From assembly GCF_003334315.1 (NCBI RefSeq), contig NZ_QOWR01000124.1: a stretch of DNA of 1,119 nt, one strand, 5' to 3'. This document shows positions 11 to 1,119 of this stretch, one piece after another. The first letter of the stretch is position 1, and each line of letters starts with the position of its first letter. Position numbers and translations under genes: made by a program. The DNA is from Escherichia coli. GTDB lineage: Bacteria; Pseudomonadota; Gammaproteobacteria; Enterobacterales; Enterobacteriaceae. The notes under the pieces were generated by a model. The model was given only the letters and a program-made list of their open reading frames with translations, had not been told where the DNA came from and did no database searches.

Positions 11-1119
11 ATGTCAACCGGATTACGTTTCACACTGGAAGTGGACGGCCTGCCGCCGGATGCTTTTGCGGTGGTTTCCTTTCATCTGAACCAGTCACTC
101 TCTTCGCTCTTTTCCCTCGATCTCTCCCTGGTCAGCCAGCAGTTTCTCTCCCTTGAATTTGCGCAGGTGCTGGACAAAATGGCCTACCTGACGATATGGC
201 AGGGCGATGAAGTACAGCGCCGGGTGAAAGGCGTGGTGACCTGGTTTGAACTCGGGGAGAACGACAAAAACCAGATGCTGTACAGCATGAAGGTGCACCC
301 GCCGCTGTGGCGTGCCGGTCTGCGCCAGAACTTCCGTATCTTCCAGAACGAGGACATCAAAAGCATCCTCGGCACGATGTTGCAGGAAAACGGGGTGACC
401 GAATGGAGTCCGCTGTTCAGCGAGCCGCATCCTTCCCGTGAGTTTTGTGTCCAGTACGGTGAGACTGATTACGATTTCCTGTGCCGGATGGCGGCGGAGG
501 AAGGCATCTTCTTTTATGAGGAGCATGCTTACAAAAGTACCGACCAGAGCCTGGTGCTGTGCGACACAGTCCGCCATCTGCCCGAATCTTTTGAAATCCC
601 ATGGAACCCGAACACCCGTACCGAGGTGAGCACCCTCTGCATCAGCCAGTTCCGCTACAGCGCACAAATCCGCCCTTCTTCCGTGGTGACCAAAGACTAC
701 ACCTTTAAACGCCCCGGCTGGGCCGGACGTTTTGAACAGGAAGGCCAGCACCAGGACTACCAGCGCACGCAGTATGAAGTGTATGACTACCCCGGACGTT
801 TCAAGAGCGCCCACGGGCAGAACTTTGCCCGCTGGCAGATGGACGGCTGGCGAAACAACGCAGAAACCGCGCGGGGAATGGGCCGCTCGCCGGAGATATG
901 GCCGGGACGGCGAATTGTGCTGACGGGGCATCCGCAGGCGAACCTGAACCGGGAATGGCAGGTGGTGGCAAGTGAACTGCACGGCGAACAGCCACAGGCG
1001 GTGCCAGGACGGCAGGGAGCGGGGACGGCGCTGGAGAACCATTTTGCGGTGATCCCGGCAGACAGAACATGGCGACCACAGCCGTTGCTGAAACCGCTGG
1101 TCGACGGCCCGCAGAGCGC
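11..1119 (+). CDS. vgrG: Type VI secretion system spike protein VgrG (TssI), N-terminal portion; 3'-partial, truncated by the window end (last complete codon ends at 1117)
   Basis: Seen in sequence: ATG at 11-13 opens a frame with no stop through 1119 (369 complete codons, hand-translated). Translation starts MSTGLRFTLEVDGLPPDAFAVVSFHLNQSLSSLFSLDLSLVSQQFLSLEFAQVLDKMAYLTIWQGDEVQRRVKGVVTWFELGENDKNQMLYSMKVHPPLWRAGLRQNFRIFQNEDIKSILGTMLQENGVTEWSPLFSEPHPSREFCVQYGETDYDFLCRMAAEEGIFFYEEH... and ends ...NREWQVVASELHGEQPQAVPGRQGAGTALENHFAVIPADRTWRPQPLLKPLVDGPQSA. Established knowledge: I recognise this as the conserved N-terminal region of enterobacterial VgrG, largely the phage gp27-like domain and reaching about the start of the gp5-like OB-fold. 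This is recall, not a database hit. A GGAGG motif lies 5 nt upstream of the ATG. Codon usage is G/C-rich at third positions and TTA/CTA/TCA are absent from codon 30 onward. Confidence 0.92.
   Translation, partial: MSTGLRFTLEVDGLPPDAFAVVSFHLNQSLSSLFSLDLSLVSQQFLSLEFAQVLDKMAYLTIWQGDEVQRRVKGVVTWFELGENDKNQMLYSMKVHPPLWRAGLRQNFRIFQNEDIKSILGTMLQENGVTEWSPLFSEPHPSREFCVQYGETDYDFLCRMAAEEGIFFYEEHAYKSTDQSLVLCDTVRHLPESFEIPWNPNTRTEVSTLCISQFRYSAQIRPSSVVTKDYTFKRPGWAGRFEQEGQHQDYQRTQYEVYDYPGRFKSAHGQNFARWQMDGWRNNAETARGMGRSPEIWPGRRIVLTGHPQANLNREWQVVASELHGEQPQAVPGRQGAGTALENHFAVIPADRTWRPQPLLKPLVDGPQS

Follow-up and report, generated by a model that had tools for sequence, protein, structure and literature searches.

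VgrG proteins carry a C-terminal end that binds a PAAR or Rhs effector, in some cases by way of an EagR-type chaperone, and their role, to serve as the hub in contractile injection devices, is the same as that of phage hub proteins. The phage hubs P2 gpD and T4 gp27 have their Pfam fold family (Phage_GPD) in common with the protein considered here. Unlike these phage proteins, E. coli vgrG is located outside of prophages, is fused to a gp5-like needle, and is linked to Rhs toxin genes. The EHEC strain EDL933 has three vgrG genes: vgrG1 (z0707), vgrG2 (z2262), which is found next to rhsE, and vgrG3, which is part of the T6SS-2 island (PMC7216683). At the amino-acid level, their products are at least 90% identical; the N-termini are conserved, and the C-termini diverge and are proposed to account for the choice of different Rhs cargo (PMC7216683).

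Here we analysed a stretch of E. coli DNA of 1119 nucleotides (referred to as the window, with position 1 as its first base). The window almost certainly represents the 5' end (1.1 kb) of a vgrG (tssI) gene from E. coli, with its ribosome-binding site, its start codon, and codons 1-369 (Table 1). This gene is already known, routinely annotated, and present in the literature.

Two described genes are the closest relatives of the window. The first encodes the VgrG of the RhsE element, WP_023281213.1 (702 aa), which sits between yncH and the RHS core gene and corresponds to vgrG2 (z2262) of EDL933 (PMC7216683). The window is 100% identical to this gene over 1119 bases, including the same start and Shine-Dalgarno sequence; there is no difference inside the window, which lacks the last 333 codons. 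The second encodes the cusS-island VgrG WP_000103225.1 (633 aa), the equivalent of EDL933 vgrG1 (z0707), and its copy in AH62 is likewise 100% identical over 1..1119. The cusS-island gene differs from the yncH copy in three respects: the sequences on either side of the window (before base 1 and after base 1119) have diverged, the C-terminal third of its product is unrelated in sequence to that of the yncH-locus VgrG, and a DcrB-related (EagR-type) chaperone gene precedes the Rhs gene. Among the solved structures, the spikes 7q5p and 4mtk/4uhv are homologous to the window protein, yet they stem from other organisms and are clearly diverged in sequence; residues 13-368 of the window protein align to their N-terminal, gp27-like part. 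A search of the PDB found no structure of the window's own E. coli protein; 2p5z and 6sjl, which we take to be E. coli structure entries, matched at no better than 6e-11 and 3e-10, respectively.

Table 1. Features of the 1119-nt window and the evidence on which each is based.
Feature	Position	Strand	Evidence
Shine-Dalgarno-like GGAGG	1..5	+	read directly; invariant in four diverged copies
vgrG ATG start codon	11..13	+	RefSeq start in every locus examined
vgrG/tssI 5' part, codons 1-369; window ends mid-gene	11..1119	+	open frame, family models, DNA identity
gp27-like hub domain region (Phage_GPD, residues 29-327)	95..991	+	Pfam E 9.9e-76
'shadow' ORF of 315 aa, antisense to vgrG and not a gene	95..1042	-	ORF list; no significant family match

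The vgrG reading frame and its product

Translation in six frames revealed that the frame starting at ATG 11 contains no stop codon up to base 1119, that is, over 369 codons plus two bases, and that the remaining five frames of the window contain 3-13 stops each. Given that the longest open run in 2000 composition-preserving shuffles of the window (133 codons on average) never exceeded 307 codons, an open frame of this length is far beyond chance. The first-pass annotation of this DNA had described the frame as open-ended and as absent from the accompanying list of open reading frames (ORFs), and both statements were confirmed. The frame is missing because the ORF tool omits ORFs that run off an end, which is a stated limit of the listing method and no biological surprise. 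Stop-bounded ORF lists miss genes that are cut by the ends of short windows, and a codon-aligned shadow ORF may take their place. In the present case, a T6SS spike gene would go unnoticed as a result; the value of this observation is that of a quality-control point only, and public annotation pipelines (RefSeq) already call vgrG correctly.

The Shine-Dalgarno motif that had been claimed for this frame is indeed present, with GGAGG located five bases before ATG 11. The motif is unchanged in each of the four diverged copies of the gene that we compared, whose first differences from the window appear at position 37 or later, and the homology of three paralogous vgrG loci starts exactly at position 1. 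RefSeq places the start of the coding sequence at ATG 11 in all loci examined, and the alignment to the family model TIGR03361 begins at residue 7 of the corresponding translation. In E. coli HS30-1 (L001), another in-frame ATG precedes the annotated start by 36 nt (11975-12010), outside of the window and without a Shine-Dalgarno sequence, and the distance from the annotated start to the upstream in-frame stop codon is 171 nt. The spacer between yncH and vgrG in this genome spans ~820 nt and carries no annotated feature. Within the window, an Rfam search at E values up to 1 yielded no structured RNA and a promoter scan no promoter-like sites; two terminator-like sites, compared to 1.4 expected by chance, and one weak inverted repeat were detected, and none of the promoter, terminator, and repeat scans rose above the chance level.

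Coherent codon usage had also been proposed for the ATG 11 frame. To score it, we calculated codon-usage log-likelihoods using the 13 housekeeping genes that flank vgrG in HS30-1 as training set, and obtained +94 bits for the ATG 11 frame and negative values for all five other frames. The GC content of the ATG 11 frame at codon positions 1, 2, and 3 is 62, 42, and 72%, respectively. Base-by-base comparison of the window with four diverged copies (L002-L005; 92-96% identity) placed 74-78% of the differences at the third position of sense codons, and the ratio of synonymous to non-synonymous changes in the sense frame was ~2.6:1 (54:21, 58:22, 38:13, and 28:9). The sense frame is open in all four copies. 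Purifying selection acts in the sense frame.

The product of this frame is recognised by curated models of the VgrG family, as the first-pass annotation had anticipated for TIGR03361 and Phage_GPD. Its 369-aa translation scored 332.8 bits with TIGR03361 (VI_Rhs_Vgr; cut-off 186.35) and 238 bits with TIGR01646 (cut-off 121.8), both from NCBIfam. The TIGR03361 alignment pairs residues 7-368 with model positions 1-362 of 513 and takes in the N-terminal 70% of TIGR03361 completely; coverage is partial only because the window ends mid-gene. In Pfam, Phage_GPD (PF05954) matched with an E value of 9.9e-76 along model positions 3-303 of 305. The best match among solved structures was 7q5p (5.4e-36), followed by P. 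aeruginosa VgrG1 4mtk/4uhv and 28yn (~1e-34), and 9mlp. These five best PDB matches aligned within residues 8-369, those to 7q5p and 4mtk/4uhv over 13-368, and all but one, which has a generic name, were deposited as VgrG spikes. We searched the part of the gene beyond the window in HS30-1 (L001 12011-14116), whose vgrG is identical to that of the window in its first 1109 nt. The full-length gene scored 623.3 bits with TIGR03361 and 448.3 bits with TIGR01646, and Pfam located a Phage_base_V domain (OB fold; 7.8e-15) at residues 384-450 and a Gp5_trimer_C needle (4.4e-26) at residues 467-576 of its product, both beyond the window. The 369 codons of the window encode the gp27-like hub and the linker toward the gp5-like OB-fold domain.

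Given that the Phage_GPD domain is common to phage hub proteins, the window might instead hold the baseplate hub gene of a prophage tail, of the P2 gpD or T4 gp27 type, rather than a secretion-system gene, and the translation does display a weak match (2.4e-17) to phrog_34729, a family of unknown function. We consider the chance of this to be negligible. The curated NCBIfam models, which are specific for T6SS, were passed by wide margins, and the best solved relatives are T6SS VgrG spikes, save for the one of five with a generic name. Moreover, vgrG is surrounded by housekeeping genes and genes for Rhs toxins at the yncH and cusS loci examined, and phage tail genes are absent there.

The antisense open reading frame

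The longest entry in the stop-bounded ORF list is a 315-aa ORF on the opposite strand (95..1042), which could be taken for the real gene or for a second gene overlapping vgrG, and which is longer than even the longest open run of the 2000 shuffles (307 codons). Its length is explained by the sense gene. The antisense ORF occupies the codon-aligned complementary frame of vgrG, and because the two frames are codon-aligned, each antisense stop needs a TTA, CTA, or TCA codon in the sense frame. Such codons are present only at 14, 23, and 95, and it is this threefold use by the sense gene that leaves a 315-aa stretch open on the other strand.

A match of the antisense translation better than that of the sense frame had been named in the first-pass annotation as a result that would speak against vgrG. 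No such match emerged: the antisense translation gave no NCBIfam and no PHROG match, and its best Pfam hit, with an E value of 0.052, was not significant. Comparison with the four diverged copies yielded a ratio of synonymous to non-synonymous changes of ~1:8 in the antisense frame (7:63, 8:61, 3:44, and 3:24), a pattern like that of non-coding DNA. One or two internal stops interrupt the ORF in three of the four copies, and its ATG is replaced by GTG in the same three. Codon usage points in the same direction, with -6 bits for the antisense frame versus +94 bits for the sense frame, and no RefSeq record among the loci examined (HS30-1 and the four diverged copies) annotates the antisense ORF. 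We rejected it as a gene on the basis of the missing family match, the non-coding substitution pattern, and the stops in its relatives, and regard the chance that it is one as vanishingly small. The antisense ORF is a passive by-product of codon usage in vgrG, which accounts for its length with no need of selection.

Distribution, window edges, and exchange among vgrG copies

Of the 5426 complete E. coli genomes searched by megablast with the 1119 nt, 3448 (~64%) produced a match, and at least 80% of the window was covered in 3321 of these. The search located 7819 matching places in all. Identity was at least 99% in 2114 records, many of which were 100% identical. Among the 55 matches listed, 53 coincide with a feature annotated as VgrG (T6SS tip or Vgr family protein), and the two exceptions are a truncated copy in EH09-18-41 and an unannotated relic in KMi012. 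The high identity to known vgrG genes expected by the first-pass annotation was borne out: many complete E. coli genomes contain DNA that is 100% identical to the window and annotated as 'type VI secretion system tip protein VgrG', with the same RefSeq start. In HS30-1, for example, the coding sequence of WP_023281213.1 (702 aa) begins at window base 11. As for the two exceptions, EH09-18-41 (L007 4001-4759) has kept window bases 1-759, which are joined to an N-terminally truncated Rhs gene and ydcD, and KMi012 (L006 4001-4063) has kept only bases 1-63, followed by IS1 and lambda-like prophage genes.

Degraded copies of this kind raise the question of whether the window could be the 5' stump of a vgrG pseudogene that is truncated, frameshifted, or disrupted by an IS element beyond or near base 1119. 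In addition to the copy cut after base 759 in EH09-18-41 and the 63-nt relic by IS1 in KMi012, a frameshifted copy is present in an island of 13C1065T, and the window itself ends mid-gene, at codon 369. We nevertheless consider a pseudogene improbable. All 369 codons of the window are intact, and the 100% identical matches among those listed are all annotated as VgrG without a pseudogene note; the four identical matches that we opened (in HS30-1, 13C1065T, and AH62) carry protein accessions. The wide coverage of the window among the matching genomes also argues for an intact vgrG, and the abrupt end of the window is better explained by a repeat contig.

This explanation is based on the position of the window edges. 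When the yncH copy of HS30-1 was compared to the cusS copy of AH62, mismatches were found at -2, -1, and 0, and then none until 1120. The ends of the window therefore coincide exactly with the edges of the block that the vgrG genes of the yncH and cusS loci have in common. A de Bruijn assembler would emit precisely this kind of maximal block as a short contig of its own. Given that its edges at 1 and 1119 are those of the shared block, the window is probably a collapsed-repeat contig of a short-read assembly, and would stand for two or more vgrG loci. A repeat contig is one sequence that represents two or more loci at once, and assignment of the window to a single locus is not possible, given that the cusS copy of AH62 is 100% identical to it as well.

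Pairs of copies from the same genome differ in how well they fit this block. The two copies of 13C1065T (L008 and L013) have a single difference inside the window, at 478, and outside of it they differ at 0, -1, and -2 as well as at 1120, 1129, and onward. In contrast, the two copies of AH62 have six differences between 806 and 910 and are then identical to at least window coordinate 1199. The 13C1065T pair, with its single internal difference and its edges at 0 and 1120, thus fits the window as a repeat block much better than the AH62 pair. The window as the exact repeat of AH62 was ruled out on account of the six internal differences and of the identity running past the window end.

Identity among the copies does not follow locus. 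Orthologues at the same locus (yncH) in other strains (L002 and L003) are ~92% identical to the window, whereas the paralogue at a different locus (cusS) in AH62 is 100% identical; copy L004 shows no difference from the window through base 525 and ~10% divergence beyond it. The pattern of paralogue and orthologue identity, together with the breakpoint in L004, is suggestive of exchange between vgrG copies by gene conversion or recombination. It is conceivable, though we lean somewhat against it, that recurrent gene conversion keeps the 1119-nt block identical and that this block might serve as a portable recombination handle for swapping spike C-termini and Rhs cassettes between loci. The identity of 100% across loci versus ~92% within a locus, the break at base 525 of L004, and the sharp edges at 1 and 1119 are compatible with this proposal. 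If true, it would only refine the known picture, given that homogenised N-termini with divergent C-termini are already described in the literature.

Rhs cargo and the type VI secretion machinery

The identical 1119 nt were found at two loci, one adjacent to yncH and one adjacent to cusS. At the yncH locus of HS30-1, vgrG is located between yncH and the gene for an RHS element core protein (NF041261, 2767 bits), which is followed by dsORF-e4; this copy is that of the RhsE element. At the cusS locus, vgrG lies downstream of cusRS and is followed by the genes for a DcrB-related protein and then an Rhs/PAAR protein; the VgrG encoded here is WP_000103225.1, with 633 aa. The neighbours of vgrG are thus yncG, yncH, an Rhs gene, and IS elements at one locus, and cusRS and an Rhs gene at the other. 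A third vgrG copy is present in 13C1065T as part of a T6SS cluster at the aspV tRNA gene; it is 93.4% identical over window positions 1-748 and frameshifted. The three loci match the set published for EDL933.

The cluster of 13C1065T comprises tssB, C, E, F, and G, tagH, tssA, tssM, and two hcp genes, and tssJ is partial. This genome carries both the identical vgrG sequence and a T6SS core cluster, a linkage that is seen in reference genomes. From its sequence, the cluster looks eroded. In the aspV island (L014 1-14600 and L015 18600-25200), the Rhs gene adjoining the island vgrG is a fragment. Because tssJ is partial, the island vgrG frameshifted, and the Rhs gene a fragment, the two outlying vgrG-Rhs islands of 13C1065T may lack a working machine.

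Homology to solved trimeric spikes predicts that the full VgrG (702 aa at the yncH locus and 633 aa at the cusS locus) would trimerise into a gp27/gp5-like spike. By analogy to other members of the family, the trimer would sit on the tip of the Hcp tube and act there as the puncturing T6SS spike, and its variable C-terminal end would recruit the toxin encoded just downstream, that is, the Rhs protein, which is accompanied at one locus by a DcrB-related (EagR-type) chaperone. Contraction of the sheath would then fire the spike and the toxin into a neighbouring cell. We infer these steps of trimerisation, effector loading, and secretion from knowledge of the family.

Long E. coli Rhs proteins have been described as PAAR-bearing. 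Within the first 400 aa of the RhsE core protein (L001 14186-15385), Pfam detected a strong match to DUF6531 (6e-19) and no more than a marginal one to PAAR_motif (E value 0.14), and a PAAR domain in this stretch was rejected on that basis. With respect to the genomes in which these loci were compared, the orientation of the AH62 replicon is opposite to that of K-12.
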